DNA of 64,000 bases from Sphingobacteriales bacterium (GCA_031424975.1 JANPIL010000141.1:7293-71292); one strand, 5' to 3'; shown: positions 5,669-47,225, numbered from the stretch's first letter. Program-made: numbers and translations. The notes: generated from the letters alone by a model not told the origin.

Positions 5669-8311
5669 TCATTCGTACATTTCCTTCAGTTTTCCGCTGG
5701 TTTCCTTGTCCCGGATATCCCGGAGCAATTCGGGCACGCCCTCCGACTCATCAAACATGGCCAGCGTCTGATAGGCATTCAATCGCACGTATTCATTTTT
5801 GGCGTTGCGCGCGGTATTTTCAAGGAAACCAATGCCTTTTTTCTGGATTTCGGCGGGCTGCCTGAGCAAATACGAACCGAACAATTGCGTAAATGGATAC
5901 AGGAAGTCAAGGCTGTTGCGTTTGGCTTTTTCCAAGAACCAATCCAACTGTTCGGTTCCGGCGGTTTCGGCGTAGTAGGCGGCAATGGTAAGCGTGATGT
6001 CGCTGCTGGCCGAGTTGCGGAAAGCCGCCAGTTGCCGTTCAGCATCAGCGGGTTGGGTGCTCAGATAGCCGAATAAGGCGATGGAAACCACGTAGTACGA
6101 CGAATCTTTCAACGCCTGCCGGAAAGCGGCTTGGTAATCCTTGTGTTTCCAGCCAATCATCTTGCTCACAGCCTCGGCACGTACGTACGATTTGGGGTCG
6201 GAAACGGCCATTTTTTCCACAACCGTCTCGTAATCAGACAGTTTTACCACCGGTATTTCGGGTAGGTTGCGTATGGCCATCTGCCGGATCACCCAAGAAG
6301 CATCGTGCAGGGCATCGGCGGCCAGCTTTTTTCTTGAAGGTGTGCCAAAATGTCCGGCGGCGGTTTGGGCATTTTCAGACATACTATTTTTGGCGGAGTC
6401 GGCGGGTGGCTTTTCACCGTTTTCATCAGCCACCACTTCAAACAGCTTGTTAAACGCTTCGTAACGAGCCAAGTACTTGTCCGAATGGTAGTATTGGTAA
6501 GTCAGTTCGGCCTCCGTTTTTTCGTGCGTCACCTTGCCGAGCAACTGGGTTTCGGCATCAAAAAGCACCAAATCGGGTTGGGTGGCCGTTGCAAATGCAA
6601 AGGTTTGGTCGGGTTGGTTGATTACAATATCGCGGACGGTTTTTGTGCCGCCCGCCCATATTTCCACTTGCAGCGGCAGGCGGCAGGTTTTGTCATCGCC
6701 GGATATACTATTTTGGGTCTGCACCCGCAATTGTACTTTTCCGTTGGCATAAGTGTGCGAGACTTTCAGTTCGGGATGGCCCGCCGACAGGAACCACTGG
6801 TCAAAAAACCACTGCAAGTCTTGGCCCGTCACCTCTTCAAAGGCCAGGCGCAAATCGTGGATTTCGGCCTTGTTGTACGCGTGTTTTTTCAGGTACGTGT
6901 TCAGCGACTTAAAAAACGCCTCATCGCCCACGTATTTGCGCAGCATGTGCAGCACGCAGCCGCCCTTCTGGTACGAATGCGCATCGAACATATCCTCCTT
7001 GTCGTTGTAGTAATAGCGAATCAGCGGCTCCTGCTTGGTTTGCGCCTCCGAAAAATACACTTCCTGATCCTGTTGCAGATGGTAGTCGGCTTCGGCGCGG
7101 CCCTGTTTGTGTTCAATCCACAAATACTCGGCGTAGGTGGCAAACGCCTCGTTGAGCGGCAGGTTAGACCATGATTCGCAGGTCACCAAATCGCCGAACC
7201 AATGGTGGAACATTTCGTGCGCAATCACATCGTCGTCGTTTTCATCGAGCAGTTGGTGGCGGTCTTTCTGCACCGATTCGCCAAACACCACCGCGCCGGT
7301 ATTTTCCATTGCGCCCGACACGTAATCGCGCACCACCACTTGGGCGTATTTGTCCCACGGGTACGGATAATCCAGAATTTTGGAGTAAAAGGACAGCATT
7401 TCGGGTGTCCGCCCAAAGATATTTTTGGCGTATTTCTCGTACGGTTTTTCAACCAAGTAGCTCAGTTCCATACCGTTCCACTTGTCGCGCACCACTGCAA
7501 ACTCGCCCACGGCCATCATGAACAAGTACGGCGCGTGCGGCTTGTCCTGCTTCCAATGGTCGGTGCGCGTGCCGTTGGCATTGGATTTGGACGAGATCAG
7601 CAACCCGTTGGAAAGCGTAGTGTATTGCTTGTCCACGGTGATGAAAATCTCCTGCGTGGTGCGTTCGTTGGGCGAGTCAATGGTGGGGAACCAGCACGAA
7701 GAAGCCTCGGTCTCGCCCTGCGTCCAGATTTGGCGCGGCTTGCCGGGTTCCCGGCCATCGGGATTGATGAAATACAGGCCCTTGTCTTCGGTAATGGCCG
7801 CACTGCCGCCTTTGGGCAGGTCGTTGGGCTTGGCCACATACCGTATTCGCACCGTGAATTTTTCGTGGCGGGTGTAGGGTTTGGGCAGTTTCAGGGATAC
7901 TATTTTCTGGTCGTACGTATAAGGCAACGTGGTTTTTTTGGCGGCGGCCACCAACTCAACCGACTGTATGTCAAACCCTTTGGCATTGAGTTGCAGCGAA
8001 TCCTGGGCGTAAAAATGCGGCTTCAGCGTCAGCGTTGCCGTGCCCAGCAGGTGCTGCCTGCCCCAATCAAAACTGACTTCCAGTTTGGTGTGCAGTAGGT
8101 CATGTTTGCGGGTGCGTTCGGGTTGGTAGGGCAGCGGCGCGGTGTCGGCCACAAGGGCAAGGGGCGGCGCGGCCAGCGTGTCGGTGGTGTTGCCGGGCAT
8201 TGCCACCGGCACGTTGGCCGTTGAAGTCTGCGCAATCTTGGGGCTTTTGCACGATTCCAGACTGCCCGCGAGCCACGCCAGACAAACAGCCAGCCATAGT
8301 TTTTTGCCCAT
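5669..8311 (-). CDS. M1 family aminopeptidase, lipoprotein, with HEAT-like C-terminus
   Basis: GAMEN and HEMFHHWFG..E motifs; lipobox-like LESC. Confidence 0.92.
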   Translation of the reverse strand: MGKKLWLAVCLAWLAGSLESCKSPKIAQTSTANVPVAMPGNTTDTLAAPPLALVADTAPLPYQPERTRKHDLLHTKLEVSFDWGRQHLLGTATLTLKPHFYAQDSLQLNAKGFDIQSVELVAAAKKTTLPYTYDQKIVSLKLPKPYTRHEKFTVRIRYVAKPNDLPKGGSAAITEDKGLYFINPDGREPGKPRQIWTQGETEASSCWFPTIDSPNERTTQEIFITVDKQYTTLSNGLLISSKSNANGTRTDHWKQDKPHAPYLFMMAVGEFAVVRDKWNGMELSYLVEKPYEKYAKNIFGRTPEMLSFYSKILDYPYPWDKYAQVVVRDYVSGAMENTGAVVFGESVQKDRHQLLDENDDDVIAHEMFHHWFGDLVTCESWSNLPLNEAFATYAEYLWIEHKQGRAEADYHLQQDQEVYFSEAQTKQEPLIRYYYNDKEDMFDAHSYQKGGCVLHMLRKYVGDEAFFKSLNTYLKKHAYNKAEIHDLRLAFEEVTGQDLQWFFDQWFLSAGHPELKVSHTYANGKVQLRVQTQNSISGDDKTCRLPLQVEIWAGGTKTVRDIVINQPDQTFAFATATQPDLVLFDAETQLLGKVTHEKTEAELTYQYYHSDKYLARYEAFNKLFEVVADENGEKPPADSAKNSMSENAQTAAGHFGTPSRKKLAADALHDASWVIRQMAIRNLPEIPVVKLSDYETVVEKMAVSDPKSYVRAEAVSKMIGWKHKDYQAAFRQALKDSSYYVVSIALFGYLSTQPADAERQLAAFRNSASSDITLTIAAYYAETAGTEQLDWFLEKAKRNSLDFLYPFTQLFGSYLLRQPAEIQKKGIGFLENTARNAKNEYVRLNAYQTLAMFDESEGVPELLRDIRDKETSGKLKEMYE
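6686..6714 (-). repeat. Motif A copy in aminopeptidase CDS (degenerate middle)
   Basis: GGTTTTGTCATCGCCGGATATACTATTTT; encodes QNSISGDDKT. Confidence 0.65.
7878..7906 (-). repeat. Motif A copy in aminopeptidase CDS
   Basis: GGTTTGGGCAGTTTCAGGGATACTATTTT; encodes KIVSLKLPKP. Confidence 0.85.
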
Positions 8312-9801: not shown

Positions 9802-9874
9802 TTCTTGCGAGTCCACAGACCACGGTCGGCAGTCCACAGGTAAACCGTAGGAGCCGCCTAATTGACTGTTGGCG

Positions 9875-9903
9875 GGTTTGGGCTTTTTAAAGGATACTAT
9901 TTT
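9875..9903 (-). repeat. Motif A copy
   Basis: GGTTTGGGCTTTTTAAAGGATACTATTTT. Confidence 0.9.
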
Positions 9904-9976
9904 AGCCAACAGTTCACGTCCGACAGTCCACTGAAAAAAACAGATTGATACTGACAAACTACCGCCGCCGAGTTAG

Positions 9977-10101: not shown

Positions 10102-10662
10102 ATGGAGGAAATACAATTTTATCTGGACGAGGGCAGGGAAGACATGGAAAAATCCCTGAGGCACACGTCAAGCGAACTTGCCCGGATCAGGGCGGGGCGG
10201 GCCACGGTACACATGGTAGACGGGCTGATGGTTGAATACTACGGCTCGCCCACGCCACTGAGCCAGATGGCTTCGGTTACCGTGCCCGACTCGCGGACGC
10301 TGGCTATCAAGCCCTTTGAAAAGAAAATGGTGGGCGAAGTGGAAAAAGCCATTCGCAACAGCGACTTAGGCGTAATGCCCCAGAACGACGGCGAGACGGT
10401 GCGCATCAGCATTCCGCCGCTCAGCGAGGAACGCCGCCGCGAACTGGTGAAACGCGCCAAAAACGAGGTGGAAAGCGGCAAGGTCAGCATCCGCACTGTG
10501 CGCAAGGAAACCAACGAAGCCCTGCGCAAATTGCTGAAAGAAGGCGCATCGGAAGACGATGTGAAACGCGCCGAGGAGAAAGTACAAGCCCTGACCGACC
10601 AGTACATTGCCAAAGCCGATGAGATGGCGGGTAAGAAGGAAACTGAGATAATGACGATTTGA
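10102..10662 (+). CDS. frr: Ribosome recycling factor
   Basis: IRAGRA, IPPLSEERRRELVK. Confidence 0.97.
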   Translation: MEEIQFYLDEGREDMEKSLRHTSSELARIRAGRATVHMVDGLMVEYYGSPTPLSQMASVTVPDSRTLAIKPFEKKMVGEVEKAIRNSDLGVMPQNDGETVRISIPPLSEERRRELVKRAKNEVESGKVSIRTVRKETNEALRKLLKEGASEDDVKRAEEKVQALTDQYIAKADEMAGKKETEIMTI

Positions 10663-10712
10663 TTTTCCGGCAGTTATTCGCCATTTGAAACCCGGCTATG
10701 GCAAGATAGACG

Positions 10713-10741
10713 GGTTTCGTATTTTGAAAGGATACTATTCT
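10713..10741 (-). repeat. Motif A copy
   Basis: GGTTTCGTATTTTGAAAGGATACTATTCT. Confidence 0.85.
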
Positions 10742-10788
10742 TGCAGGAAGTACGCAGATTGCTTGGTTGGCACTTAATTGCCAATTAC

Positions 10789-10970
10789 GCACAACGGACA
10801 GGGCTTGGCGAAGTGTGGGAAATAGAATTCCGTCCGCCCGCGGCTATCTGAAACCAAATTTACAAATAGAAGCTAATTATTTGCACATGGCTAAATTAAT
10901 AACTTCCTGCTGGATATGAAGCCAAATTGAAAAACAAAAAGTTGAAACACAGCTTCCGTCAGTCCACCAA
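10789..10970 (-). other. Truncated attC-like site (array 1)
   Basis: Begins GCACAAC and shares GGGCTT..GTGTGG..AATAGAATT..GTC..GCCCG and CTTCCGTCA with the 11644 and 12520 sites; the second arm is missing; right limit approximate. Confidence 0.5.
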
Positions 10971-11121
10971 GAAAAACTTATGATTTCTTTTGCTTTTAAG
11001 CATTCTACTATTTCTACTGTATGATGTTGACTATGGTGAATAGTATTTATATAAAATTCTAATCCTGAACTGTCTGGCCGTAGTGTCCGCTACGACCAGA
11101 CCCAGCCGAGTAACTGTAGTG

Positions 11122-11307
11122 TTATACCTTTCGGTATAACGTACCAATGACAAGTAAAATAAAGCCAATTAGTAACATTTCATAGTTATACTTTGACAAT
11201 ACATCTATGTGCGTGTAATGTCCCAAAATGCCTAAAAAGCCGACGATGAGGGCAAGAACCCAGACTATTTGGTTGGGTGCACTGGGCATAAATTTTTTGT
11301 TTGCCAT
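11122..11307 (-). CDS. Small two-transmembrane membrane protein
   Basis: 61 aa with two hydrophobic segments; AT-rich. Confidence 0.6.
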   Translation of the reverse strand: MANKKFMPSAPNQIVWVLALIVGFLGILGHYTHIDVLSKYNYEMLLIGFILLVIGTLYRKV

Positions 11308-11511
11308 GGTTATTTGATTTAATTAAGGTTAAATTATTCTTTATATGAACCGTTTATTGAGTAACAATGACTCCCTTCAAAAGTAGGTCTATTTGAATTC
11401 TCAATCAAGGTAGATTTGTTCCAAACTTTGAGTTAACCAAATTTCTTCTATGGAGCTGCTATACACTGATAATCAACAGATTGTGTATTTTTCCAATAAA
11501 GCCGAACCCAG

Positions 11512-11540
11512 AAAACAGTATCTTTTCAAAACGCAAAATC
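11512..11540 (+). repeat. Motif A copy
   Basis: AAAACAGTATCTTTTCAAAACGCAAAATC. Confidence 0.75.
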
Positions 11541-11643
11541 CCTTTTTGTCAAAACAAACAGAGAACGTGCATTGCACGGATGAGAATGCAGTTTAAACAA
11601 GTTTTTAACTAACTGATTATCAACCGATAACAACTCTAAGGAC

Positions 11644-11839
11644 TGCTAACGCGCAGGGCTTTGCGCAGGTGTGGAATTAGAATTGCGTCTGCCCGGAACC
11701 GATGCCGGTTGAAAAAATAAAGTTAAAGTCAAGTGAAAAAATTCACTGATGTACGTCAAGCCCGAACAAAAGCTGAATAGAATTACAAATGCTCATTGTT
11801 ATTCCGTCTGCCCAACTTGCACAAAACCCCATGTTAGTG
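11644..11839 (-). other. attC-like recombination site (array 1)
   Basis: TGCTAAC...GTTAGTG ends; complementary arms GGGCTTTGCGCAGGTGTGG / CCCAACTTGCACAAAACCCC; stop codon overlap. Confidence 0.7.
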
Positions 11840-12493
11840 GCTGGCTCTGTGTTTTCGCATCGCATTATGTATGTCATTAATTAGTTTTTCAATTTTTGTC
11901 AATGAGTATTTACAAAATTCGCTGTCAATTTGTATGTTAAAATTTTCCTCGTCATATTCTGTTAATTCTATCGGACTATACTTTTGACAAATCTTTATTG
12001 TATCTATTGTCGATTTTGATAAGATTCCATCAGAATGCACAAATACATTCCGTATCTTATTAAAATCATTTACTTCTGTCCAAGTTTCAGACTCAAATGG
12101 CTCTATAATGTTACATACTTTTTTCAAATACAAGCTACTTCTAAATATTCCACTCCCACTAATATCTTTCAGAGTTAATTTATAAGAGTTTGATTTTTTT
12201 AAATTTTTACATATTTGGTCAAGTGAATTTTCAAGTAGAAAGTAGGTACTCAAAAATATTGATTTCCATAGTATCATAGGAAAAATTCCTTCATATTGAA
12301 TTTTCTTGCCAAATCTTTCGTCAATTACATCTTCATCAGTACTGCTTTCCATTGCAGTAATTTTTGTCTTTAAAAATACTTCTGTTTCACTTATTAAATC
12401 TTCATAATGTTTCAACTCATCATATACTCCGTGATTGAAGAAAAAATGATAAGTATAAGTGTCTTCTTCTTGTTTTTTTAAATCTTCGTCCAT
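11834..12493 (-). CDS. Hypothetical protein (cassette ORF, array 1)
   Basis: 219-aa AT-rich ORF; its TAA stop overlaps the end of the attC-like site. Confidence 0.75.
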   Translation of the reverse strand: MDEDLKKQEEDTYTYHFFFNHGVYDELKHYEDLISETEVFLKTKITAMESSTDEDVIDERFGKKIQYEGIFPMILWKSIFLSTYFLLENSLDQICKNLKKSNSYKLTLKDISGSGIFRSSLYLKKVCNIIEPFESETWTEVNDFNKIRNVFVHSDGILSKSTIDTIKICQKYSPIELTEYDEENFNIQIDSEFCKYSLTKIEKLINDIHNAMRKHRASH

Positions 12494-12519
12494 TTTTTAA
12501 AAGGTCTGTTTGAGCTTAC

Positions 12520-12716
12520 CACTAACGATCGAGTATTGCTGCAGTTGGGGAATTGACCAACTATCTGCCCGGTACTGAAGCTAAATTAATAACTAAAAGC
12601 CGAAGTTAAGAACTAATGATCGGTAGAATTCCGTCCGCCGGATATAAAGCTTGGATATGCACTGCTGCTGATTGTACTTCCGTCAAACCCCAATTGCAGC
12701 AATACTTTTGTTGGCA
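12520..12716 (-). other. attC-like recombination site (array 1)
   Basis: CACTAAC...GTTGGCA; arms AGTATTGCTGCAGTTGGGG / CCCCAATTGCAGCAATACT. Confidence 0.72.
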
Positions 12717-12725
12717 GCCGTATTT

Positions 12726-13529
12726 TTAGTCAATGAATACTTTGCGATGTCTCATGTCATGTTTAAATATTTCATCGGATTTCATTGTCTTACCCTTATA
12801 AATGTTTGAAGGTTTACACTTGTCGCAATTAATCACTCTATATACTAAGTTGTAGCCTTTGTGTTTTTTATTCTTTCCAACTACAACTCCTTTAATTATA
12901 CAGTCATAAGTTATGTAGTCAGTGAAAGCTGAATAAGAAAACAAAGTAGCACTATCAGTTCCGTCATGTCTGGATTGTTCTTTGAATGGGATTTTGATGG
13001 TGTCGCCTATATTCACTTTCTCAAAAATTTGTTTGAGTTCAGCTTCTTTTTTTATCATTTGCCGTTTTACCTCGTCAAAATATAGTTTGTCTGGCTCAAA
13101 CTCATTTGAATAACAAGTTATTTCCTTAGAAAATAGTCCTTTGTTATATGCTTGCAAATGAAGTTCTGGCAACTTATTAAATTGCTTTAATCGCTGTCTG
13201 TCAATTTTTTTTGGTGACATGAAGTCATAAGTTCCAGCGTACAGCATAATAATTTCAAGTGTATCGCATTTTTTTTGCAATTTGATTTTTGTCCGCTCAA
13301 ACCCAACCCAAGTAAAAAATAGAATTTGTATTTGTTGCGGTACTTCAATTTTAAATCTGCCGTTTAAATCTGTCCTGCCAAACAAAATTGTGTCTTTGTT
13401 TTGAATGTGGACGTCAGGTAGCGGCTCTAAGTCTTGTGAAATAACTCTTCCCCGAATAGTTCGGGTTTGTCCACACAGAATTGTGTCAAACAAAAGTAAA
13501 GTCGCTATAAAAATGACTGTAAGTTTCAC
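12726..13529 (-). CDS. Carboxypeptidase-regulatory-like domain protein (cassette ORF, array 1)
   Basis: Signal peptide, TIRGRVISQDLEPLP..TDLNGRF..FTWVGFE; GTG start 13529 just downstream of the attI-like GTT. Confidence 0.7.
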   Translation of the reverse strand: MKLTVIFIATLLLFDTILCGQTRTIRGRVISQDLEPLPDVHIQNKDTILFGRTDLNGRFKIEVPQQIQILFFTWVGFERTKIKLQKKCDTLEIIMLYAGTYDFMSPKKIDRQRLKQFNKLPELHLQAYNKGLFSKEITCYSNEFEPDKLYFDEVKRQMIKKEAELKQIFEKVNIGDTIKIPFKEQSRHDGTDSATLFSYSAFTDYITYDCIIKGVVVGKNKKHKGYNLVYRVINCDKCKPSNIYKGKTMKSDEIFKHDMRHRKVFID

Positions 13530-13543
13530 ATTAATATGTCTGC

Positions 13544-13567
13544 CAACTCTCAAATAGACGCAAGTTT
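13544..13567 (-). other. attI-like array head (array 1)
   Basis: CAACTCTCAAATAGACGCAAGTTT, identical to 26394-26417; on the - strand it ends in GTTG. Confidence 0.65.
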
Positions 13568-13920
13568 TGCGCCTCATCGCAATGTTAGTGAAAGGGGCTG
13601 AAGATACCAAAATACGGTGTCCATTTTTCCATAACCGTTTTACAATCAGTTGGATAAGCCCTTACGATTACTGCCAGGTTAAGTTGAACAATACAAAATG
13701 CGCATTGAGTACTAGACGGTGTTTATCGTTTTCGGCAATACAAAATACGCATTGCGGCAATGACACTATTTTGCCTGTCAGCAATACAATATGCGCAATA
13801 ATGCGTGCCGTCATTTCAGAGTGTCCAGCGGGCTTTTCGTATTCTTCAAATTCCTTTGGCTCACGCATATCTAATGCATCTTTCAAGAATAACCCCAAAA
13901 CCCCCGCCGACACCAGCAGG

Positions 13921-13949
13921 GGTTTTGTGTTTTCGAAACATACTATTTT
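13921..13949 (-). repeat. Motif A copy
   Basis: GGTTTTGTGTTTTCGAAACATACTATTTT. Confidence 0.88.
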
Positions 13950-14030
13950 CCAAGGATGGTTTTGGGGTAGGCTGGCAATATGGAAAACGGGGACGTAATT
14001 TATGCCTGCCGCCATATTGCCAAACCAATG

Positions 14031-14939
14031 TCAGTGATGGCTTTTTATTTTATCTCCAATATAGTTCAAAGCCTCACCGTAAGTTTCAATTCCGTGTCCC
14101 ACATTGTTGAATACTTTTATTTCTTTCAAAAACCTTAAATGTTGTTTTGCATTTTCAATGGATTTTTGAAATGGAAAGAGCAAATCCTTGTCACCTTCGA
14201 TAAGGTAGGTTTCGGCTTTTACATCTGAGAGTTGCTTGTCCATGTAATATGGCTTTTGTGTCCTGTCCTTGTAGCGGCTTATTGCAAACACCTCATAGTC
14301 AACAAGCATTTTTTCCGAAAACACAGATAGCTTGTGATGGGGTTTTGAAAAAACGGCTTTATCCAAAAATTTCAACACATTCTTTTCCGTCGGGCTTACA
14401 ATGGGCAGCAAATTGAAATAAAGGTTTTTGAGTGTCATCGAAAAAGGTTGCAAACAGCCAGGATTCAGCAAAAAAGCCGACTTTATTTTTTCAGGCTTCA
14501 CTATTCCAAGTTTCATGCAGATGAGACCGCCAAATGAAGCTCCTGCAACAAATGCTTTTTCGATATTCAATTTGTCAAAAACTTCTGCCGCCCAAAAACC
14601 ATAGTCCAACGATTTGATTTCCGGGGTTGCCCCATCACTCAGATTGGGAAGGCCATTTGTTTCCACCATGAAGATTTTCATCTTATGGTTCAGGTTGTCA
14701 AGCCCTTTGTCAAAATCCCAAATCAAAGAGGTTGTTCTTGCACCCGGAAAAATCACCAATGTCTCAAGATGTTCCTCCTTTGTGTTGAGACCCCAGACAT
14801 GGGTGTTTCCAAGTGAAGTTTTTATTTCATAACGTTCATATTGCCTCCCGTTATTTTTCTCCAATTGTCTTACCCAACTTTCAAAATGCTCGAAGTCGGC
14901 CTTTTCATCTTTAAAACATGATTCTTTTTTTATTTCCAT
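14031..14939 (-). CDS. Alpha/beta hydrolase
   Basis: GASFGG nucleophile elbow, GDKD, GHG; lower GC. Confidence 0.85.
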   Translation of the reverse strand: MEIKKESCFKDEKADFEHFESWVRQLEKNNGRQYERYEIKTSLGNTHVWGLNTKEEHLETLVIFPGARTTSLIWDFDKGLDNLNHKMKIFMVETNGLPNLSDGATPEIKSLDYGFWAAEVFDKLNIEKAFVAGASFGGLICMKLGIVKPEKIKSAFLLNPGCLQPFSMTLKNLYFNLLPIVSPTEKNVLKFLDKAVFSKPHHKLSVFSEKMLVDYEVFAISRYKDRTQKPYYMDKQLSDVKAETYLIEGDKDLLFPFQKSIENAKQHLRFLKEIKVFNNVGHGIETYGEALNYIGDKIKSHH

Positions 14940-15019
14940 CGTCTTTCATGTTGGCGTTTTTTTGAAACACCCGCCTTTTTACAGTACCAGCCGTGCTTTT
15001 TGCTCGTTTGCCGGCAGGG

Positions 15020-15048
15020 GGTTTGGCCTTTTTGAAACATACTATTTT
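15020..15048 (-). repeat. Motif A copy overlapping the treS stop codon
   Basis: GGTTTGGCCTTTTTGAAACATACTATTTT. Confidence 0.9.
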
Positions 15049-18000
15049 GCCGCGTACTCGTCCATGATGTATTTGATGCCGCGAATCGGGATCACCACCC
15101 AGTCGGGGCGCATATTCAGCTCGTAGTTGAGTTCGTAAATCGCTTTTTCAAGGATGAAGATTTGCAGCATCAGGTCAACATCTTCCAAGGTGTCGGGCAG
15201 GAAATCCTGGCCGTTGGCGGTTTCCAGGTACGATTGCATGAAAAAGCCCGACACGTAGTGGAACCACTGCTCGGCCCACGTTTGCAGGTAGGCCACATCT
15301 TCGCGGCGCATTTTTTCGTCCTGAATCAGTTGGTAGAACGCCGCGTAGTGAAACGACCGGATCATGCCCGCCACGTCGCGCAGGGCGGAGCGTTTCAGGC
15401 GGCGTTCACTGAACGAACGTATTGGCTCGCCTTCGAAGTCAATGATGATGAAATCCTCGCCCGTAAACAGCACCTGGCCCAAGTGGTAGTCGCCGTGGTT
15501 GCGAATCTTGTTGGTGTTGAACTTGTGGCTGTACACGCGCTGCATGAATTTCAGGATGGCGGGCCGCATACCCAGCACTTCTTCGGCTTCGGCCCGCACC
15601 GATTCGGGCAGCGTGGACAGCTTTTTCTTCAGCAAATCAAACGAGCCGCGCACCTGCGCCACCAGCGACGAATACAGCGAACGCTGGTAGTGCAGCGAAT
15701 AGGCTTCCGGCTCAAAGCCTTTTTCCTCAGGATGCGAGGCAAGTGCCAAGTGCATTTCGGCGGTGCGCTGGCCCAGCAGCCGCACCCGCTCCACGTACGC
15801 GCCCCCGAGCAGTTGCTGCATTATTTCGGGAATCTGCTCGAACGTGACCGGCTTAGTGAGCATCCCCATGGGCGGCAGCACGTTTAAATGGCGGTTTTCG
15901 GTCAGTTTGCGGTCGAAGAACCGGCGCAGCACATCACCGAAGTACGTCCAGGCATCGCCTTGGTTAGGCACCAGTTCCTGCATCATGCCCAGCACCATGG
16001 GGTCGTGTTTGGCCTGCTGGTATTCAAGCGAACCGGCAAACTTGGGCACGTGCCTGAAATTGGTCTGCTCGGTCAGGAAGCGGGTTATTTCCAAATCGGG
16101 GTTGTAGGCGCGGTCCAGTTTGCGGTAAATCTTGAAGAAATACTTGTCGTCGAAAACCGCCGAGGTGTTGCTCTGCTCGGCATTCAATATCTTGGATTTC
16201 ACTACCTGCTTTTTGGTTCCACGCAGGGCTTTTTCCACGTCTTTGGTCACGTAGGCGTTCAGGTCGCCATCGCCCACGCGCATCTTGCGTTTCTGTGTCA
16301 TCAATGCGTACAGCACGTTGCGGAACTCTTCGCTGTACACGGCATCGTAGAGTATGCCTTTTTTGCCACCCACCAGCACCGGCACAATGATTGCCTTCGG
16401 GCTTTCGTCGCGGATTTTCCGTTCCTCGTCGCCAAAAGCCAGTGCCACCGGCAGCGAATACATTTCGGGCAGGCCTTCGTTATAGTTCACTTCCAGCACA
16501 AAAAACGCCGACTCGCTGCTCACCGTCGGGATGGTGATGTTTTCCACGACTTGCACCGTCTGGATTGTGCGGGCTTTGCCGCCAAACCAACGGCAACTGA
16601 GCAGGTAGGACGGGAATACCTTGTTTTCCAAGAACCGGATTTTCTTGGCTTCCGACAGTTCATCCCAATCCGAAAGTTCCAAGGCGGGCAGTTGGCTGTT
16701 GTCCCTTGCCGAAGCCGCCACCTCCACTTTTTTCAGTGCCAGCCAATAATAGCTGTGCGCGGTCAGCGTGAACAGGTAATCGTGATCCTTGATGGGGGGG
16801 AATGCGTTGTGGCTGAACACTTCAACGGGTTCGTAGCCCCGGTAAGCCGATAGGTCCAGTTCAACCGCCTGCGGGAAACGCGACAGGTTGGCCACCACCA
16901 GCATAGTCTCGCCTTCATAGGAACGGATGAAGGCCAGCACTTTTGAGTTGGTAGGGTTCAGGAAATGGATGTCGCCCCGGCTGAATGCCTTGTAACGCTT
17001 GCGCATATCAATGATGCGCTTGGTCCACCAGAGCAGCGAATTTTGGTTTTTCTGCTGGTTTTCCACGTTTACCGACCCGTACATATATTCCGGGTCGCTC
17101 ACTACGGGCAGGTACAGTTGCTGCGGGTTGGCCTTGGAGAAACCGGCATTGCGGTCGTCGTTCCATTGCATGGGAGTCCGCACACCGTCACGATCCTTGA
17201 GGAAATAATTGTCGCCCATACCGATTTCATCGCCATAATACACCACCGGTGTGCCGGGCAGCGAAAATAGCAGCACGTTCATCAGTTCTATCTTACGGCG
17301 GTTGTTGTCCATGAGCGGAGCCAGCCGGTGCCGGATGCCGAGGTTTATCTTGGCCTGCGGGTCTTTGGCATACACCTTATACATGTAGTCGCGTTCCTCG
17401 TCGGTCACCATTTCCAGCGTCAATTCGTCGTGGTTGCGCAAAAATACCGCCCACTGGCACGCATCGGGAATGGAAGGTGTCTGCTCAATGATGTTCATGA
17501 TCGGGTAGCGGTCTTCCATTTTCACCGACATGTACATCCTCGGCATAATCGGGAAGTTGTAGTTCATGTGGCATTCGTCGCCGTTGCCAAAGTAGCTTGC
17601 CGAATCTTCGGGCCACATATTGGCTTCGGCCAGAAACATCCGGCCCGGATAATTCTTGTCCATGTGGGCGCGCATTTTCTTCAAAAATGCGTGCGTTTCG
17701 GGCAGGTTCTCGCAGTTAGTGCCGTCGCGTTCAAACAAATAGGGCACGGCATCCACCCGGAAACCGTCCACACCCATGTCCATCCAATAGTCGAAAATCT
17801 TGAAAACCTCTTCTTGCACCTTCGGACTGTCGTAGTTCAGGTCGGGTTGGTGGTGGAAAAACCGGTGCCAGTAGTAGGCCTTCGCCACCGGATCCCAGGT
17901 CCAGTTGGAGGTTTCGGTGTCGGTGAAAATGATGCGTACGTCCTCGTATTTCTTGTCCGTGTCGCTCCACACGTAAAAATCGCGATTGACCGAGCCCTCC

Positions 18001-18380
18001 GGTGCCCGCCTGGCCCGCTGGAACCATGGGTGCTGGTCGGAGGTGTGGTTCAGCACCAGTTCGGTAATCACGCGCAGGCCCCGGCGTTTGGCTTCCTTCA
18101 TGAAATTCTTAAAATCCTGGATGTTGCCGTACGTCGGGTTGATGGTGTAGTAGTCGGCAATGTCGTAGCCATCATCGCGCAGCGGCGACGGATAAAATGG
18201 CAGCAGCCAGATTGCCGTCACGCCCAGTTCTTCGAGGTAGTCCAGTTTCTGGATCAGGCCCTTGAAGTCGCCGATGCCATCGCCGTTGCTGTCGGCAAAC
18301 GCCTTGATGTGCAGTTCGTAAATGATTGCGTCCTTGTACCAGCGCAAGTTGTCGTCTTGGGGAAGTGTGTTCGTTGCCAT
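15042..18380 (-). CDS. treS: Trehalose synthase fused to maltokinase (TreS-Mak)
   Basis: WYKDAIIYE, SPLRDDGYD, GFRVDAV, FLRNHDELTLE; C-terminal kinase IRNHGDYHLGQVL..IIDFEGEP. Confidence 0.95.
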   Translation of the reverse strand: MATNTLPQDDNLRWYKDAIIYELHIKAFADSNGDGIGDFKGLIQKLDYLEELGVTAIWLLPFYPSPLRDDGYDIADYYTINPTYGNIQDFKNFMKEAKRRGLRVITELVLNHTSDQHPWFQRARRAPEGSVNRDFYVWSDTDKKYEDVRIIFTDTETSNWTWDPVAKAYYWHRFFHHQPDLNYDSPKVQEEVFKIFDYWMDMGVDGFRVDAVPYLFERDGTNCENLPETHAFLKKMRAHMDKNYPGRMFLAEANMWPEDSASYFGNGDECHMNYNFPIMPRMYMSVKMEDRYPIMNIIEQTPSIPDACQWAVFLRNHDELTLEMVTDEERDYMYKVYAKDPQAKINLGIRHRLAPLMDNNRRKIELMNVLLFSLPGTPVVYYGDEIGMGDNYFLKDRDGVRTPMQWNDDRNAGFSKANPQQLYLPVVSDPEYMYGSVNVENQQKNQNSLLWWTKRIIDMRKRYKAFSRGDIHFLNPTNSKVLAFIRSYEGETMLVVANLSRFPQAVELDLSAYRGYEPVEVFSHNAFPPIKDHDYLFTLTAHSYYWLALKKVEVAASARDNSQLPALELSDWDELSEAKKIRFLENKVFPSYLLSCRWFGGKARTIQTVQVVENITIPTVSSESAFFVLEVNYNEGLPEMYSLPVALAFGDEERKIRDESPKAIIVPVLVGGKKGILYDAVYSEEFRNVLYALMTQKRKMRVGDGDLNAYVTKDVEKALRGTKKQVVKSKILNAEQSNTSAVFDDKYFFKIYRKLDRAYNPDLEITRFLTEQTNFRHVPKFAGSLEYQQAKHDPMVLGMMQELVPNQGDAWTYFGDVLRRFFDRKLTENRHLNVLPPMGMLTKPVTFEQIPEIMQQLLGGAYVERVRLLGQRTAEMHLALASHPEEKGFEPEAYSLHYQRSLYSSLVAQVRGSFDLLKKKLSTLPESVRAEAEEVLGMRPAILKFMQRVYSHKFNTNKIRNHGDYHLGQVLFTGEDFIIIDFEGEPIRSFSERRLKRSALRDVAGMIRSFHYAAFYQLIQDEKMRREDVAYLQTWAEQWFHYVSGFFMQSYLETANGQDFLPDTLEDVDLMLQIFILEKAIYELNYELNMRPDWVVIPIRGIKYIMDEYAAK

Positions 18381-24277: not shown

Positions 24278-24519
24278 AGCCTATTGGGTTTCTATTGCCC
24301 CGGTACGGTGATACCAAGGGCTTCTTTATTAGAGTTGATTTTGTCCTGCCGCAAAAACGTCTGACCGTGCTGGATATTTACCAACCAAATCTTTTGAAGG
24401 GGATGCAAGCAATAGAATTTCATGAGGCGTTTTGTAGTTTTTGTCAAGCCTCATGAAAGTTGTATTTTGATTGCTAAATTCCGTTTTTTAAGCTGTAACG
24501 TCGTCATTTGTAACCTGAC

Positions 24520-24652
24520 CGCTAACGGTTTAGAGGGTTTGCGATGGCGGGGAGTTTTAGCACTAAACTTCATTCGGAGAACCAAACTTCCACTTTGCAC
24601 AAAAGTGTCTGCGAAGCACGCAACCCCCGCTACTGAAAACCCCTTGTTAGTG
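24520..24652 (-). other. attC-like recombination site (array 2)
   Basis: CGCTAAC...GTTAGTG; arms GGGTTTGCGATGGCGGGG / CCCCGCTACTGAAAACCC; stop codon overlap. Confidence 0.7.
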
Positions 24653-25450
24653 GTTCGTTGTTTCATTGTCATCCATTTCACGTTTATATTCTTCTTTATA
24701 TTCACCGTGTTCGTCAAATTTACTTTGAAATTGTCGGTAGCTAATAAAACCGATAAACGGCTTAGAATGATTGTCACCAAGTGTTAATCTCAATTTCGTT
24801 TTGTAATTACCCTTAAAAATTGGAGCTAATGTCAGGATGCACTCATTTGGAGGGAGAATAAATGAGCCCACGCCATTACCACACTTATAAATAAACCTTT
24901 CTTGTATCGGTTTCCAATTTCCTAAAGTGTCCACTGCTTCCATTACAATAGGAACGTGGCTACCATAACCGATGAAAATAGTGTCAGTGTCCCGATTTGT
25001 TAGTATTACTGGATATAAGTTGGCTAATTTAATTGCTGTGTCAAGCTGAATTTCAATTTTAGATTGTGTCCAGTTTCTATAACTCCTTTCCTCGTCCCAT
25101 TCTATATAGTATTTTTTAAAGGAATTTTCAAGTTCAGTTATTTTTGTCCTATTACTCGTCTTTGCTCCTGAAGGCAAAGGTGGCGGAGGAGGAGGTGAGA
25201 AGTTAGTAAAAGGACTTAAATAAATGGTGTCTTTAACTTCTCCAATAAAGTAAAAATTGTAATTTGAAGTTGTTAGCCAATTAGGGTTTTCATCTTCAAA
25301 AAAATGCAAAAACTTGTCTACGCCAAAAGTGTCAAGCACCAAGGGAAAAGGTTGTAAATTGTCAGCCTCTTTTGCTGCTTCCTTTTTGTCAGTCTGACAA
25401 CCGATTAAAAAAAGTGTAGTCAGAAGAAATATTAGTTGAATTTGTCTCAT
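24647..25450 (-). CDS. Hypothetical lipoprotein (cassette ORF, array 2)
   Basis: Lipobox LIGC; AT-rich; TAA stop overlaps the attC-like end. Confidence 0.75.
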   Translation of the reverse strand: MRQIQLIFLLTTLFLIGCQTDKKEAAKEADNLQPFPLVLDTFGVDKFLHFFEDENPNWLTTSNYNFYFIGEVKDTIYLSPFTNFSPPPPPPLPSGAKTSNRTKITELENSFKKYYIEWDEERSYRNWTQSKIEIQLDTAIKLANLYPVILTNRDTDTIFIGYGSHVPIVMEAVDTLGNWKPIQERFIYKCGNGVGSFILPPNECILTLAPIFKGNYKTKLRLTLGDNHSKPFIGFISYRQFQSKFDEHGEYKEEYKREMDDNETTNH

Positions 25451-25472
25451 TTGTTGTCGTCTTTACAATGAC

Positions 25473-25670
25473 CGCTAACGGCTACGGCTTGGCGATGTGG
25501 CGGTATTTGAAAATCGTCAGCCTGTAACTGCTGTTGAATAAAGTTACAAAAAATGATGATTAAGAACTACAGCTCGGCGTTATTCGTCGGCTGGAACTGA
25601 AGCCGATTAGCGAACAAAAAGTTGAGAATATATTCGTCGCCCCGCCATATTGCCAAACCGAATGTTGCCT
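25473..25670 (-). other. attC-like recombination site (array 2)
   Basis: CGCTAAC...GTTGCCT; arms CGGCTTGGCGATGTGGCGG / CCGCCATATTGCCAAACCG. Confidence 0.72.
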
Positions 25671-25696
25671 GCTGGCGTTTTTCGTTAGCTTTTGAG

Positions 25697-26053
25697 TTAT
25701 TTTTTCCATTCTTTTATGCTGTAAGAGTCAATGATAGAGTCCTTTGTCAATTTTAATTGTAAAGACTTGGTGTAAACTGGGTCAATGTCAAAGCCATAAT
25801 CTGTTTCAATTTCGTAATAAACAATGTCGTTTTCTTTGTCGCTATAGTTTTCTGGTTCGCCAATTAAGTTTACTAATTGTCTGTAAGAAAGACCTGTTAG
25901 TTTATAATTCTTGGTCAAATCTTTCAGCATAGATTTTCTATGTGTGTAAATTCTCAAGTCGCCCTGTTCTTGCCATTTCGTTTTGTCAAACTTTTCATTA
26001 GAGTTACAAGATGTAAGAAAGATGCTAACTAAAAAAGTTATAAATACCTTCAT
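25697..26053 (-). CDS. Hypothetical lipoprotein (cassette ORF, array 2)
   Basis: Lipobox LTSC; 118 aa; AT-rich. Confidence 0.75.
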   Translation of the reverse strand: MKVFITFLVSIFLTSCNSNEKFDKTKWQEQGDLRIYTHRKSMLKDLTKNYKLTGLSYRQLVNLIGEPENYSDKENDIVYYEIETDYGFDIDPVYTKSLQLKLTKDSIIDSYSIKEWKK

Positions 26054-26349
26054 AATTTAGATTCCTTCTTTTTGTTAAACGAATAAATTCTTTCTGCAAC
26101 AAGTCCATAAAACAGGCAATTTAGAAATAGTCCAACAAAAAACATTGAGCCATTCATAAACTGAAAAAATAAAGTGTGTGTCGGAAAACGAAAGATGTAA
26201 AATAGTTTTTCAAGGGCTTTCACAATTATTCCATCGCCACCTGTTCCTTCATCTCTTGCTGCTGCTGCAACTAATGTTACAAAAGTCAAAATGCCACAAA
26301 TTATTGTCGTAATAAAGAATGTTTTGAAGTTGAATTTTGGAATTTTCAT
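26050..26349 (-). CDS. Small membrane protein (cassette ORF, array 2)
   Basis: Two transmembrane segments; ATGA overlap with the next gene; start at ATG 26349 downstream of the attI-like GTT. Confidence 0.65.
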   Translation of the reverse strand: MKIPKFNFKTFFITTIICGILTFVTLVAAAARDEGTGGDGIIVKALEKLFYIFRFPTHTLFFQFMNGSMFFVGLFLNCLFYGLVAERIYSFNKKKESKL

Positions 26350-26393
26350 TGCCTGTCTAAATGCAAATTGTGGTGTCGCACTACGCTTGCAGG

Positions 26394-26417
26394 CAACTCT
26401 CAAATAGACGCAAGTTT
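26394..26417 (-). other. attI-like array head (array 2)
   Basis: CAACTCTCAAATAGACGCAAGTTT, identical to 13544-13567. Confidence 0.65.
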
Positions 26418-26675
26418 ACGCTAGAACGTAAACATGTGTGCATTTTCAGGAAAATCAAAGTTTTTCCTGAAAATTCCGTACAAGTGTCTGATATTCAGAC
26501 TATTGCATTTATTGCCTGTATTCGTTGACCCATCGGCAATGCAAAATACGCTGGTTGCACTGTGCGTATTTCCATCCGGTTGGCAATACAAAATGCGTAC
26601 TTCGCAAAACGTATTGCCGTCGATGACGACAATACGTTTTGCGAAGTACGCATCAACTTGTTCAGCGGGCTTTTT

Positions 26676-27455
26676 TCAATTACGCTCGGCCCGGAAGTTT
26701 TTCAAACAATCCTGAATGGCCGAAGCCAGCGTGTATTCGTCCGATTCCACCACAAAATCCTCGGCCAGCTTGCAGTAAGCCATGAATTTTTCCAGTTCTT
26801 CGGTTTGCAGCCCCGTCACCTTCGCCACAAAATCGGGGTTCATCTTGGCTTTGTACACCCGCTGCCGGTTGTCGTTTTGCAGCATTTCCGTCAGTTTGCG
26901 TTTGGATTTTCCTTCCTTACTGAACCGGTCGTAGAGCTTGGTGATAGGCCCCGAAACGCCAACCCCCACGCCGCCGCTGCGGACCACATCCGAAAGCGTT
27001 GCCAGCCGGGGTATTTGCGGCAACTGCAAATCGGGCTGGTTGGGAAGCCGCAAGCCAAGCAAGTCCTTTTTGAACTGCTTTTCAGAATACGGGCGGATGG
27101 TGATTTCGTTGAGCTGGTACACTTTCTGCCGCATCACCGCCCGCACCGACACCTTGTCGGATGAATAGTACTTTGGCAGCACGTACACCGATTTTTCCAA
27201 GTTCACGGCCGTAAATTCCAGCGTATCGCCGCGCCGCACATGGATGGAGAAAAAACCGTTGTCGCCGCTGATGGTTCCCATGCGGCTGCGCGTGTTGGCT
27301 ACCGTCACGTAGGCGGCGGGTGTGAGGCTGTCGCGGTGCAGCGTGAAACCCTGTACCAGTACAAGCCCTTGGCTGCCGGGTTTTTGCTGCGCAAGCGCGA
27401 CGTTTGCCAGGCATAAACCGGCAAGCAGGATGAGAAACAATGGTCGTTGCATCAT
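26676..27455 (-). CDS. Carboxypeptidase-regulatory-like domain exported protein
   Basis: Signal peptide, GTISGDNGFFSI..GDTLEF, VYQLNEITI. Confidence 0.75.
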   Translation of the reverse strand: MMQRPLFLILLAGLCLANVALAQQKPGSQGLVLVQGFTLHRDSLTPAAYVTVANTRSRMGTISGDNGFFSIHVRRGDTLEFTAVNLEKSVYVLPKYYSSDKVSVRAVMRQKVYQLNEITIRPYSEKQFKKDLLGLRLPNQPDLQLPQIPRLATLSDVVRSGGVGVGVSGPITKLYDRFSKEGKSKRKLTEMLQNDNRQRVYKAKMNPDFVAKVTGLQTEELEKFMAYCKLAEDFVVESDEYTLASAIQDCLKNFRAERN

Positions 27456-42466: not shown

Positions 42467-43567
42467 TTAATTTCGCATCAAGTCAATGAATTCATCAAAA
42501 AGATAACGCGAGTCGTGCGGCCCTGGCGATGCTTCGGGGTGGTATTGCACTGAAAAAGCCGGCTTATCTTTGCGCCGGATGCCTTCAATGGTGTCATCGT
42601 TCAGGTTCAGGTGCGTAATTTCAACATTAGCAAAATCGCGTACCACGTCGCCCCGTACGGCAAAACCGTGGTTTTGCGAGGTAATCTCGCCTTTGCCGGT
42701 AATCAGGTTTTTGACCGGATGGTTCAGCCCCCGGTGTCCGTGATGCATTTTATAGGTATCAATTCCACTGGACAAAGCCAATATCTGATGTCCCAGACAA
42801 ATGCCGAACATAGGTTTTTCGGCATCCAGAATTTGCTTGACCGTATTTATCGCGTAAGGCATTGCCGCCGGATCACCGGGACCGTTGGAGATGAAATATC
42901 CGTCTGGATTCCAAGCCTGCATCTCTTCAAAAGATGTTTTGGCGGGAAACACGCGGCAGTAACTGCCACGATTGGCCAGGTTACCCACAATACTTCTTTT
43001 AATACCCAAATCCAGAACCGCAACTTTCCATCGGGAATTCTCATCTCCCACAAAAAACGGCTGTTTTGTACTTACTTGCGAAGACAATTCAAGTCCGGCC
43101 ATATCCGGCACTTCCATTAATTTTTGCCGCAGAACCTGCACATCCGGTATTTCCGAAGATATAATGGCATTCATCGCACCACGGCTGCGAATGTGCCGGA
43201 CTATTTCCCGCGTATCCACCCCATAAATACCCACAATGCCAGCCTTCTCAAAATAGGCTTGTAGAGAAGCATCCGCCATATCGCGCGAGTGGATTGCCGA
43301 AAACGCACTGCATACCATCCCGCTTATTTTCACCGAACCGGATTCCTGTTCGGTGTCTATCGTTCCATAGTTGCCAATATGCGATACTGTATTGATTACG
43401 ATTTGCCCGAAATAAGAGGGGTCAGTGTAGATTTCCTGATAGCCGGTCATGCCGGTATTAAAGCAAACCTCGCCGGCTGTTGTCCCGGTTTTTCCCAGTG
43501 CATACCCACGGTAAATCGTACCATCCTGCAATAAAAGCACAGCTTCGGTGCGTGTTGGATATCTCAT
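42467..43567 (-). CDS. carA: Carbamoyl-phosphate synthase small subunit
   Basis: FNTGMTGYQE..TDPSY, SNGPGDP, GICLGHQ, QYHPEASPGP. Confidence 0.97.
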   Translation of the reverse strand: MRYPTRTEAVLLLQDGTIYRGYALGKTGTTAGEVCFNTGMTGYQEIYTDPSYFGQIVINTVSHIGNYGTIDTEQESGSVKISGMVCSAFSAIHSRDMADASLQAYFEKAGIVGIYGVDTREIVRHIRSRGAMNAIISSEIPDVQVLRQKLMEVPDMAGLELSSQVSTKQPFFVGDENSRWKVAVLDLGIKRSIVGNLANRGSYCRVFPAKTSFEEMQAWNPDGYFISNGPGDPAAMPYAINTVKQILDAEKPMFGICLGHQILALSSGIDTYKMHHGHRGLNHPVKNLITGKGEITSQNHGFAVRGDVVRDFANVEITHLNLNDDTIEGIRRKDKPAFSVQYHPEASPGPHDSRYLFDEFIDLMRN

Positions 43568-43678
43568 GGTAAGTCGGAGGTTTACGGATTTGAAAACATA
43601 TTATTTTGACAGGCTGTAATCAACAATTTAATTTGTCATTTATTGTCCATCACAAACATAAAAATTAACAGGGCATAA

Positions 43679-43711
43679 AAAAAGGATTGGAGACAAACTC
43701 CAATCCTTTTT
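43679..43711 (-). terminator. Intrinsic terminator after rplQ
   Basis: AAAAAGGATTGGAG-ACAAA-CTCCAATCCTTTTT. Confidence 0.85.
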
Positions 43712-43731
43712 CCTATTCAATGAATGCGGCA

Positions 43732-44298
43732 TTATTCCTTGCTTTGAGTTTCCTCCGAAGAAGAATCATCCGCATCTGTATCCTGTGCCGACTGCTCACT
43801 TGCTGGTGCTTCCGTTTCTATAACGGAAGTTGCTTGTACCTCCGCCACATCAGACTCGGAACCCTCCGCCTTTGATTTGCCTCCCCGACGGCTACGACGC
43901 GTCTTTGTCTTCACCTCAGATGCTGCTTTCAGCATTGTTTCGTTGTAATCAACCAATTCAATCAAGCACATATCTGCATTATCACCCGGACGGTTGCCCA
44001 ACTTGATTATACGAGTGTACCCACCTGGACGGTCACCAACTCTTTCGGCAATGTCACCAAACAGTGTCTTAATAGATTCTTTGTTTTGCAAATACGAAAA
44101 AACCGTCCGACGAGAGTGTGTCGTGTCATTTTTGGACTTTGTTATTAAAGGCTCCACATATTTGCGCAGTTCTTTTGCCTTCGCCAACGTTGTCTCAATT
44201 CTCTTGTGCTCAATCAAAGAGGACGCCATATTAGACAATAATGCCTGACGGTGGCTGGATGTCCTTCCTAAATGGTTGTGTGTTTTTCCGTGTCTCAT
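43732..44298 (-). CDS. rplQ: 50S ribosomal protein L17 with acidic tail
   Basis: [23 protein letters not shown]. Confidence 0.97.
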
Positions 44299-44371
44299 AT
44301 TACTAAACTAATAAATTCTATCAATTTACGTCTTTAAACAACATTTTTCATTAAAAATAATGACGGTTTTC

Positions 44372-45361: not shown

Positions 45362-45412
45362 AAATTTAATGTTTTGATTTCTGTTAGAGGACAAACTTCA
45401 CAAACAATTGAA

Positions 45413-46018: not shown

Positions 46019-46155
46019 TTTATCTAATATTCAAAATTTTATTTTATGTCAGTGTTATGACTTTAAACGCCCGGCCTGTACTTTTATCTTAAGTCGTAAT
46101 AGAGATTTTGTTTGCCTGTGGCTCACGAAATTTTCCACCTCCGCAAATCATGCTT

Positions 46156-47065: not shown

Positions 47066-47070
47066 AAGAA

Positions 47071-47187: not shown

Positions 47188-47225
47188 TTCTGCGGAATTT
47201 TGAGGTAAGCACTAAATATTAGGAA

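Follow-up and report, generated by a model that had tools for sequence, protein, structure and literature searches.

Three open reading frames (ORFs), each followed by a long imperfect inverted repeat that resembles an integron attC site, form a probable gene-cassette array on the minus strand of a 64,000-nt stretch of a Sphingobacteriales bacterium genome (GCA_031424975.1, JANPIL010000141.1:7293-71292), referred to here as the window and numbered from its first letter. The first-pass annotation, made from the sequence alone, had reported AT-rich, co-oriented minus-strand ORFs and inverted repeats of ~197 bp, all of which were found within, at most, a few bases of where it had placed them. Cassette 1 (12526-13546, minus strand) starts with TTGGCAG and contains an ORF (12726-13529, minus strand) with a GTG start codon, encoding a secreted protein with a signal peptide and an N-terminal CarboxypepD_reg-like domain (Pfam PF13715, E 9e-8). 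Cassette 2 (11650-12525, minus strand) starts with TTAGTGG and encodes a 219-aa protein (11834-12493, minus strand), while the decayed cassette 3 (10795-11649, minus strand) starts with TTAGCAG and comprises a 61-aa ORF for a two-helix membrane protein (11122-11307, minus strand), 340 nt of non-coding sequence and, at about 11483-11511, a copy of a dispersed repeat (Motif A, see below). Cassette 1 begins only 18 nt before its GTG codon, leaving no room for a promoter, and no cassette promoter was identified in a scan whose consensus does not cover the promoters of Bacteroidota.

The boundaries of both intact cassettes carry the G^TT signature of integron crossovers, where the caret marks the putative point of exchange. 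Cassette 1 starts as G^TTGGCAG at 13547, and its first bases, GTTGGCAG, are the exact complement of its own end, CTGCCAAC (12717-12710). Likewise, cassette 2 starts as G^TTAGTGG at 12526 and ends in CCACTAAC (11840-11833), giving the complementary boundary GTTAGTGG/CCACTAAC; the TAA stop codon of its ORF sits within CCACTAAC, confirming the overlap between a stop codon and a site end that had been reported earlier. Complementary boundaries are what would be expected if a circular unit of ORF plus site had been opened at G^TT, as integron cassettes are. The start of cassette 3 (TTAGCAG) is no longer complementary to the degenerate end of its site (TCATAAG), and this third cassette has begun to decay. 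Across the genome, 10 of 23 sites have an exact GTTNNNNN complement of their own NNNNNAAC at most 2 kb upstream, with starts that read G^TTNNNNN, against 0.63 expected (binomial P about 6e-10), 1 in a downstream control and 0.54 with shuffled 5-mers; the distances between matching boundaries (657-1326 nt) correspond to one gene each. The sites always directly follow an ORF and share its orientation, and the G^TT signature is also present in cassette chains of relatives. Sequence comparison points to the ORF plus its site, not the site alone, as the mobile unit.

Site family and terminal stem

Site C (12519-12717, minus strand), at the end of cassette 1, runs from CTGCCAAC to CG^TTAGTGG and has a near-perfect terminal stem of 19 bp (inverted repeat I9, 95% complementary), an nhmmer E-value of 5e-46 and 92% identity to one site on contig C351. 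Site B (11643-11840, minus strand), running from CCACTAAC to CG^TTAGCAG, is the top-scoring member of the family (nhmmer E 4e-54) and has three internal direct boxes, TGGGCAGAC, CGGGCTTGAC and CGGGCAGAC. Site A (10788-10983, minus strand; nhmmer E 7e-27) had been described as truncated and starting at 10789, a position that proved to be its intact GTT end (CCG^TTGTGCG, with the putative crossover between 10795 and 10794); the site is of full length but degenerate. Its AAC-side arm (~10960-10983) has decayed, with AAC changed to AAG and ~8 nt gone, and no AAC is found at the expected position, where the end now reads TCATAAG.

When aligned, the three sites have a mean column identity of 71%, and an nhmmer profile built from them retrieved 24 near full-length copies and ~10 partial ones from this genome, dispersed over more than 20 contigs and mostly present as singletons or pairs. 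Matches to the full-length family lie well beyond chance (E 1e-25 to 1e-54), whereas the motif TAGAATTCCGTCCGCC by itself is barely so (3 matches against 0.49 expected, with 3 reached in 2 of 100 shuffles). On the cassette strand, the family consensus comprises a ...YRYYAAC end, a ~4-nt spacer, a long stem with its partner at a distance of ~150 nt, a ~6-nt spacer and CG^TTRRYR, with AAC and GTT retained in 17-23 of the 23 copies around a covarying 16-bp L-type stem. The sites are 160-217 nt long and their flanking positions fit RYYYAAC/GTTRRRY in part (CTGCCAAC and CCACTAAC at one end, GTTAGTG and GTTAGCA at the other), as had been noted from the local copies. The loop of the site is not free to vary, and an internal box, YSGRC-N(1-3)-GAC, occurs at three fixed places, with 44 copies on the top strand against two on the bottom strand. 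No Rfam family matches the sites, and the only matches, below threshold and attributable to chance, were to hairpins within the second array's head.

RNAalifold analysis of 23 copies returned a single long-range stem and nothing else, with compensatory changes in 11 of its 15 pairs. In a 19-pair structure, 86.2% of cells form standard pairs, compared with 39-46% when the 3' partner was slid by 1-3 columns, and the covariation score of 0.405 (0.06-0.10 when slid) was reached in none of 500 shuffles. Arms such as GGGTTTTGTGCA/TGCACAAAGCCC, GTATTGCTGCA/TGCAGCAATAC and AGGTTTGGCATT/AATGCCAAGCC remain complementary although their sequences have changed. Support for the stem was taken from this covariation in the family, as the folding energy of single copies backs only site C, which as single-stranded DNA forms an end-to-end hairpin of -27.9 kcal/mol (z = -2.6 against shuffles). 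The structure shows spacer asymmetry (4 nt against 6) and, in the middle of the stem, a one-by-one mismatch that is conserved, and G-U pairs are frequent in the top, mRNA-sense strand.

Members of the site family are often found within 1-2 kb of contig ends (C302, C93, C168, C146, C90, C334, C332 and C399). These repeats probably break the assembly, and the sizes of arrays elsewhere in the genome may therefore be underestimated.

Heads, tails, cargo and flanking genes

Upstream of cassette 1 lies a conserved leader, or type I head (13548-13857, minus strand), which shares 87% identity over 319 nt with the leader of another array of the same genome, on contig C473; the array start at 13567 given on first pass was not borne out, as this position falls inside the leader. 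The head ends in an attI-like core (13545-13571, minus strand) made up of a hairpin, CGCAA-AAC-TTGCG (13571-13559), a spacer, TCTATTTGAGA, and G^TT, in which the crossover would fall between G13547 and T13546. The corresponding head motif, GCGCAAAACTTGCGTCTATTTGAGAG^TT, with its 5-bp hairpin, 12 nt and G^TT, precedes the first cassette in 7 arrays of this genome. Within the head are three 19-bp boxes (13689-13707, 13736-13754 and 13782-13800; direct-repeat family D2, with the core on the cassette strand), with the core GCGCATTTTGTATTG, the palindrome AATGCGCATT and a spacing of 46-47 nt. Tandem boxes of this type, on the cassette strand and spaced by 46-49 nt, lie upstream of heads or sites without a recombinase on at least 8 contigs (listed as C141, C473, C183, C213, C168, C306, C326, C90, C394 and C508). 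A six-frame search of the leader with a hidden Markov model of the recombinase described below found nothing, and no remnants of it were detected in type I or type II heads.

The array ends in a tail (10745-10794, minus strand; TTGTGCGTAATTGGCAATTAA...), and the sequence that follows the last site, G^TTGTGCGTAATTGGCAAT..., is common to this array and that on C473. Shared at both ends, head and tail look like two halves of one attI-like site split by the inserted cassettes, and the tail may be read as the right half of the original site, displaced to the end of the array by successive insertions. Metagenome contigs encoding an frr protein at least 90% identical share ~87% DNA identity across pyrH-frr up to window position 10744 and then diverge. 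One close relative (L130) carries, on the same strand, an array of DUF4265 and ankyrin cassettes with the same tail, G^TTGTGCGTAATTGGCAATTAA, and perfectly complementary boundaries (GTTGTAGGC/GCCTACAAC and GTTGTGCGAT/ATCGCACAAC). It therefore holds different cassettes between the same flank and the same tail, so that cassette content has turned over at one platform. In L130-L137 (9584-10234), the interval between frr and the array also contains a gene for a Uma2-family endonuclease and a further small lipoprotein cassette, whose site is short; both are absent from this window.

A second array of the window (24480-26720, minus strand) has an identical 24-nt head core, ending in G^TTGCCTG at 26397, a 198-nt site at about 25479-25671 (~25470-25674 by nhmmer) and a distinct 200-nt leader common to C351. 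In total, the arrays of this genome comprise the local one, that at ~24.5-26.4 kb and roughly ten more.

The cargo of these arrays is diverse, as is typical of cassettes, and includes DUF1877, peptidase S58, an alpha/beta hydrolase (C173), DUF5694, several lipoproteins and small membrane proteins. The product of one cassette (C168:334-1900) is a 432-aa protein in which a Prim-Pol domain is fused to an RNase_T-type exonuclease. Homologues of the cassette-2 protein are 43-83% identical to it, and some are named RiboL-PSP-HEPN in UniRef; these names, an RNVFVH (Rx4H) motif and a weak PADLOC match (RTasHEPN, E 0.009) suggest that the protein is probably of HEPN type. Pfam gave no match for it, and no HEPN model reached threshold for the protein or for five homologues. 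First-pass annotation had proposed searching for homologues flanked by similar sites in other Bacteroidota, with syntenic homologues lacking such flanks counting against a cassette. This comparison did not refute the cassette reading: a homologue in Saonia flava (51% identity) is a member of a chain of 10 or more cassettes with 188-nt sites, and another, in GCA_943368735, adjoins an array; a Flavobacterium copy has no such flanking sites.

The array occupies part of an AT-rich island (10.7-15.0 kb) with a GC content of 0.32-0.39 (about 0.35), compared with 0.50-0.57 (about 0.54) in its flanks, and the island is bordered by frr (10102-10662, plus strand) on one side and by a treS-like gene (15042-18380, minus strand) on the other. 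Upstream of the head is an alpha/beta-hydrolase ORF (14031-14939, minus strand; Pfam Abhydrolase_1), which, with a short decayed attC-like hairpin (GGTTTGGCAATATGG...CCATATTGCCAGCC), may represent an older cassette (13960-14939, minus strand); by eye, the 5' arm of this hairpin resembles that of the site at window position 25470. The hydrolase gene is AT-rich and is flanked by two copies of Motif A (window 13960-15017). This ~30-nt dispersed motif (GGGTTTGGSCTTTTTGAAAGRATACTATTTT) is found in most intergenic regions, with copies here at 9873-9906, 10711-10744, 13919-13952, 15018-15051 and about 11483-11511, that is, at both edges of the island and inside cassette 3. Other small dispersed repeats are abundant in the genome, and a long AT-rich stretch of the window (43000-59000) has a strongly negative GC skew.

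Recombinases in relatives and their apparent loss here

Neither this genome nor 40 relatives encode an integron integrase scoring above the TIGR02249 cut-off, and no tyrosine recombinase lies near the three sites in the window, in line with the lack of an integrase reported on first pass. Profile and tblastn searches of the whole assembly with integrase-family queries detected no full-length cognate recombinase, two Xer-like genes being the sole tyrosine recombinases retrieved. One locus retains a vestige: at C492:5291-5461, a 55-codon C-terminal recombinase remnant immediately precedes a head, a cassette and a site that share its strand, and is 50-58% identical to the C-termini of 316-665-aa recombinases from relatives. 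A recombinase-less array in a genome of the same genus (G003:C74; L027, about 7438-7602) likewise keeps the last ~55 codons of a recombinase before its head. Retention of this segment in two genomes hints at an element within it that the array requires, for example a promoter or part of attI.

A complete element is present in the same genus (G003:C172), where a 477-aa recombinase gene is followed by a head (...CTATATACTAG^TTAGCGG; ...GATGCAAGTGGGTGCATCTATATACTAG^TTAGCGG), an ORF, a 130-nt site (ACCGCTAAC...CCG^TTAGCTGC), a second ORF and a second site (GCAGCTAAC...CCG^TTGGTGG). BLAST searches of relatives' genomes with one site sequence showed that the local site family also occurs in G003, and the sites of C172, although shorter (~130 nt), have the same end architecture. 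More widely, a scan of one genome per species yielded 80 loci with relatives of the recombinase. Arrays were called in these by a chain detector, which requires GTTNNNNN, then its complement with a hairpin, and the end of one unit to be the start of the next; only chains were used, as single cassette calls at low threshold were noisy and a hairpin score alone detected only site C. The arrays so detected contain 2-5 cassettes and begin 45-160 nt beyond the stop codon of a recombinase gene with which they share a strand, in Winogradskyella ursingii, a Flavobacteriaceae isolate, Aquiflexum, Pontibacter and metagenome-assembled genomes of Bacteroidota, Ignavibacteriota and Spirochaetota. Downstream of the stop codon, relatives have a hairpin of differing sequence, a short spacer and G^TT. 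This attI-like site lies 3' of a co-oriented recombinase gene, not between divergent genes, and every examined head with a neighbouring recombinase gene adjoins an insertion-less, co-oriented enzyme. Through their site family, head motif and the C492 remnant, the arrays described here belong to what we provisionally call the HARP-recombinase cassette system.

The family comprises at least 7963 proteins at E <= 1e-20, annotated as XerD, 'tyrosine-type recombinase' or 'site-specific tyrosine recombinase/integron integrase'. Its best NCBIfam models are NF040815 (XerA/'integron integrase'; 201-225 bits) and TIGR02249 (IntI; 198-217 bits against a cut-off of 265), with lower scores for the XerC and XerD models. 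Alignment to XerA (5hxy) is continuous, whereas the match to VchIntIA (2a3v) falls into two pieces, with 24 residues where IntI has 67, at the position of the IntI-specific domain; the C-terminal tail, KSPLDxL, resembles that of IntI. The N-terminus consists of 1-3 copies of a 65-aa domain, which the Pfam HARP model matches in 14 of 23 members (best E 2.9e-7). One copy was modelled with AlphaFold (predicted local distance difference test, pLDDT, 93.8; 79.9 for the full-length recombinase), and its model gave Foldseek matches to the HARP substrate-recognition domain of SMARCAL1, the damage-recognition domain of XPB and the C-terminal domain of T4 MotA (probability 0.96-0.97, template modelling score 0.54-0.60). 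PF22823, present among the precomputed domains, is MrpR_C_cat, a model of the catalytic domain, and adds nothing.

Interpretation and comparison with known systems

These data suggest that the region holds an orphan array of gene cassettes, part of an integron-like system that is common among Bacteroidota and does not rely on a classical integron integrase, a reading to which we assign a probability of roughly 0.78. The boundary signature and the covarying stem agree with the first-pass proposal of a cassette array with a non-canonical class of attC. Each cassette would consist of one promoterless ORF and a long imperfect palindrome (about 125-205 nt, attC-like), and a complete element would have an Xer/IntI-like tyrosine recombinase immediately upstream on the same strand, with an attI-like site (hairpin, ~6-12 nt, G^TT) after its stop codon. 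Strand exchange is predicted at G^TT, joining attI to a folded attC or one attC to another, as in integrons, so that cassettes would enter at the head and could leave as circles. In place of the IntI insertion, which reads extrahelical bases, the HARP-like domains may recognise the folded site, perhaps through its three internal boxes. With no full-length recombinase in the assembly, the arrays here would be static unless the enzyme arrives in trans.

Several observations weigh against this interpretation. The assembly is in 515 contigs and 96.6% complete, and the part that is missing could contain a recombinase gene. The 19-bp boxes are absent from the complete elements of relatives, no conserved gene was found upstream of the heads, and the headed platforms lie in unrelated intergenic places. 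Neither an empty site nor an excised circle was observed; genomes of the same genus keep pyrH-frr, but treS is not downstream. Of the 23 sites, 13 lack an exact boundary match, and the structural matches of the HARP-like domain have weak E-values (0.02-0.5). Extrahelical bases are central to the recognition of classical attC sites. The first-pass annotation had proposed folding the bottom strands in search of such bases; site C beat its shuffles, but sites B and A, folded alone as single-stranded DNA, did not (z = +0.3 and +0.7), and no clear single extrahelical bases were found in the family structure. Bottom strands were slightly more stable than top strands at 16 of 22 sites, a small difference.

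A conventional cluster of attC sites lacking integron integrases (CALIN), derived from a classical integron whose cassettes were moved by a canonical IntI in trans or since lost, would account for the AAC...GTT ends, the G^TT signature, the co-oriented promoterless ORFs and the stop codon within a site end, and classical integrons are known, if rarely, in Bacteroidota (PMC8618304, PMC9024848). We nevertheless consider it very unlikely, given that no match above the TIGR02249 cut-off was found in this genome or the 40 relatives, that the recombinases neighbouring the heads examined are all insertion-less and co-oriented, that the C492 remnant belongs to the HARP-recombinase family and not to IntI, and that sites of 125-205 nt with conserved internal direct repeats differ from classical attC sites with their variable loop. 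'CALIN-like', as the array had been labelled, is right in form, but the lost enzyme would not be a classical IntI, relatives having a recombinase family of their own. That this family is closest to XerA/Xer and lacks the IntI domain that reads folded DNA, and that two of the three local sites fold unconvincingly alone, would fit an Xer-type reaction on double-stranded DNA, like that of the dif modules of Acinetobacter plasmids, with the palindromic ends acting as two inverted binding sites. This is unlikely, however, for arms that lie ~150 nt apart and stay complementary as their sequences change, as expected for pairing and not for two copies of one protein-binding sequence. HARP domains, as in SMARCAL1, bind fork and junction DNA, and the fold match would extend binding of branched DNA to the domains of the recombinase.

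It is highly improbable that the 200-nt elements move or act alone, either as non-autonomous dispersed repeats of the miniature inverted-repeat transposable element (MITE) or repetitive extragenic palindrome (REP) kind or as RNA structures (3' stabilisers or terminators), with no cassette recombination. Their scatter across more than 20 contigs, for the most part singly or in pairs, in a genome rich in other small dispersed repeats is compatible with such an origin, as are the frequent G-U pairs of the mRNA-sense strand. Yet the unit bounded by GTTNNNNN/NNNNNAAC is an ORF plus its site, sites are always co-oriented with an ORF and directly after it, arrays of relatives begin at a conserved head beside a recombinase, cassette content differs at one platform between close relatives, and no Rfam family matches. 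Nor do the elements resemble MITEs or REPs, as the arms covary rather than being conserved, the unit includes an ORF, and no flanking duplications were noticed.

Beyond the orphan cassette array itself, we lean, at slightly better than even odds, towards the view that Bacteroidota and neighbouring phyla possess a widespread integron class of their own, whose integrase never had or has lost the IntI insertion and uses fused HARP-type domains instead, and that this genome holds a dozen recombinase-less mini-platforms (head, 19-bp boxes and tail), maybe as mobile or regulated units serviced in trans. If so, soil, freshwater and marine Bacteroidota would harbour a large reservoir of mobile cassettes that is invisible to standard tools, and the IntI insertion would not be the sole route by which a tyrosine recombinase can act on folded hairpin sites. 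The locus adds the state after loss of the enzyme, with many small headed arrays, turnover at one platform and a decaying terminal cassette. IntegronFinder-based surveys list hardly any integrons for Bacteroidetes, and recombinases without the domain are excluded by definition (PMC9024848, PMC4889954): Cury et al. (2016) treated recombinases lacking the IntI domain near attC sites as not IntI (PMC4889954), and the 2022 survey lists a single complete integron in Bacteroidetes, in Salinibacter ruber (PMC9024848). Smyshlyaev et al. (2021) remarked that this insertion is incompletely conserved within the integron-like subgroup (PMC8138268). A literature search, with most subscription journals beyond its reach, found no published description of the system, which is apparently undescribed.

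The system resembles integrons (IntI, attI and attC, as in class 1 and the chromosomal integron of Vibrio cholerae) in its arrays of single promoterless, co-oriented ORFs with AAC...GTT palindromes, the G^TT crossover implied by the boundaries, a primary site beside the recombinase gene with predicted entry at the head and a right half ending up at the end of the array, stop codons often within the TAAC end, and a diverse, mostly uncharacterised cargo. It differs in a recombinase that has no IntI insertion, scores below the IntI cut-off and carries N-terminal HARP-like domains, in the co-orientation of the recombinase with the cassettes and the position of attI 3' of its gene, and in sites of 125-205 nt with conserved internal direct repeats and no clear extrahelical bases. 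CALINs and single attC sites lacking integron integrases (SALINs) provide the nearest parallel for the local array, which has at least two attC-type sites without an integrase in reach (~4 kb), if the sites are counted as attC. The enzyme lost here, however, would not be IntI, and many platforms here have a conserved head of their own with 19-bp boxes. Most sites are near or above the default maximum attC length of IntegronFinder, which is 200 nt. The recombinase remnant at one locus parallels the pseudogenes seen in a minority of CALINs (PMC4889954). 'Inverted integrase' integrons, present in Treponema and certain other lineages, also have the recombinase gene oriented as the cassettes (PMC3607928, PMC4889954), but theirs is a true IntI with the additional domain, unlike the family described here. 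Among Xer recombinases and Xer-dependent dif modules, archaeal XerA is the best sequence match and shares the simple catalytic core without an arm-binding domain, whereas the recombinase is not a single-copy housekeeping gene at dif but is array-linked, with the KSPLDxL tail and extra HARP-like domains. The modelled fold of its N-terminal repeat is like those of SMARCAL1 HARP, of the damage-recognition domain of XPB and of the C-terminal domain of T4 MotA, although in this case a tyrosine recombinase carries 1-3 fused copies of the domain, whose DNA binding is putative. Under a strict definition, which requires the IntI-specific additional domain near patch III, the system would not be called an integron; judged from its sequences, it appears integron-like in every feature compared except that defining domain.

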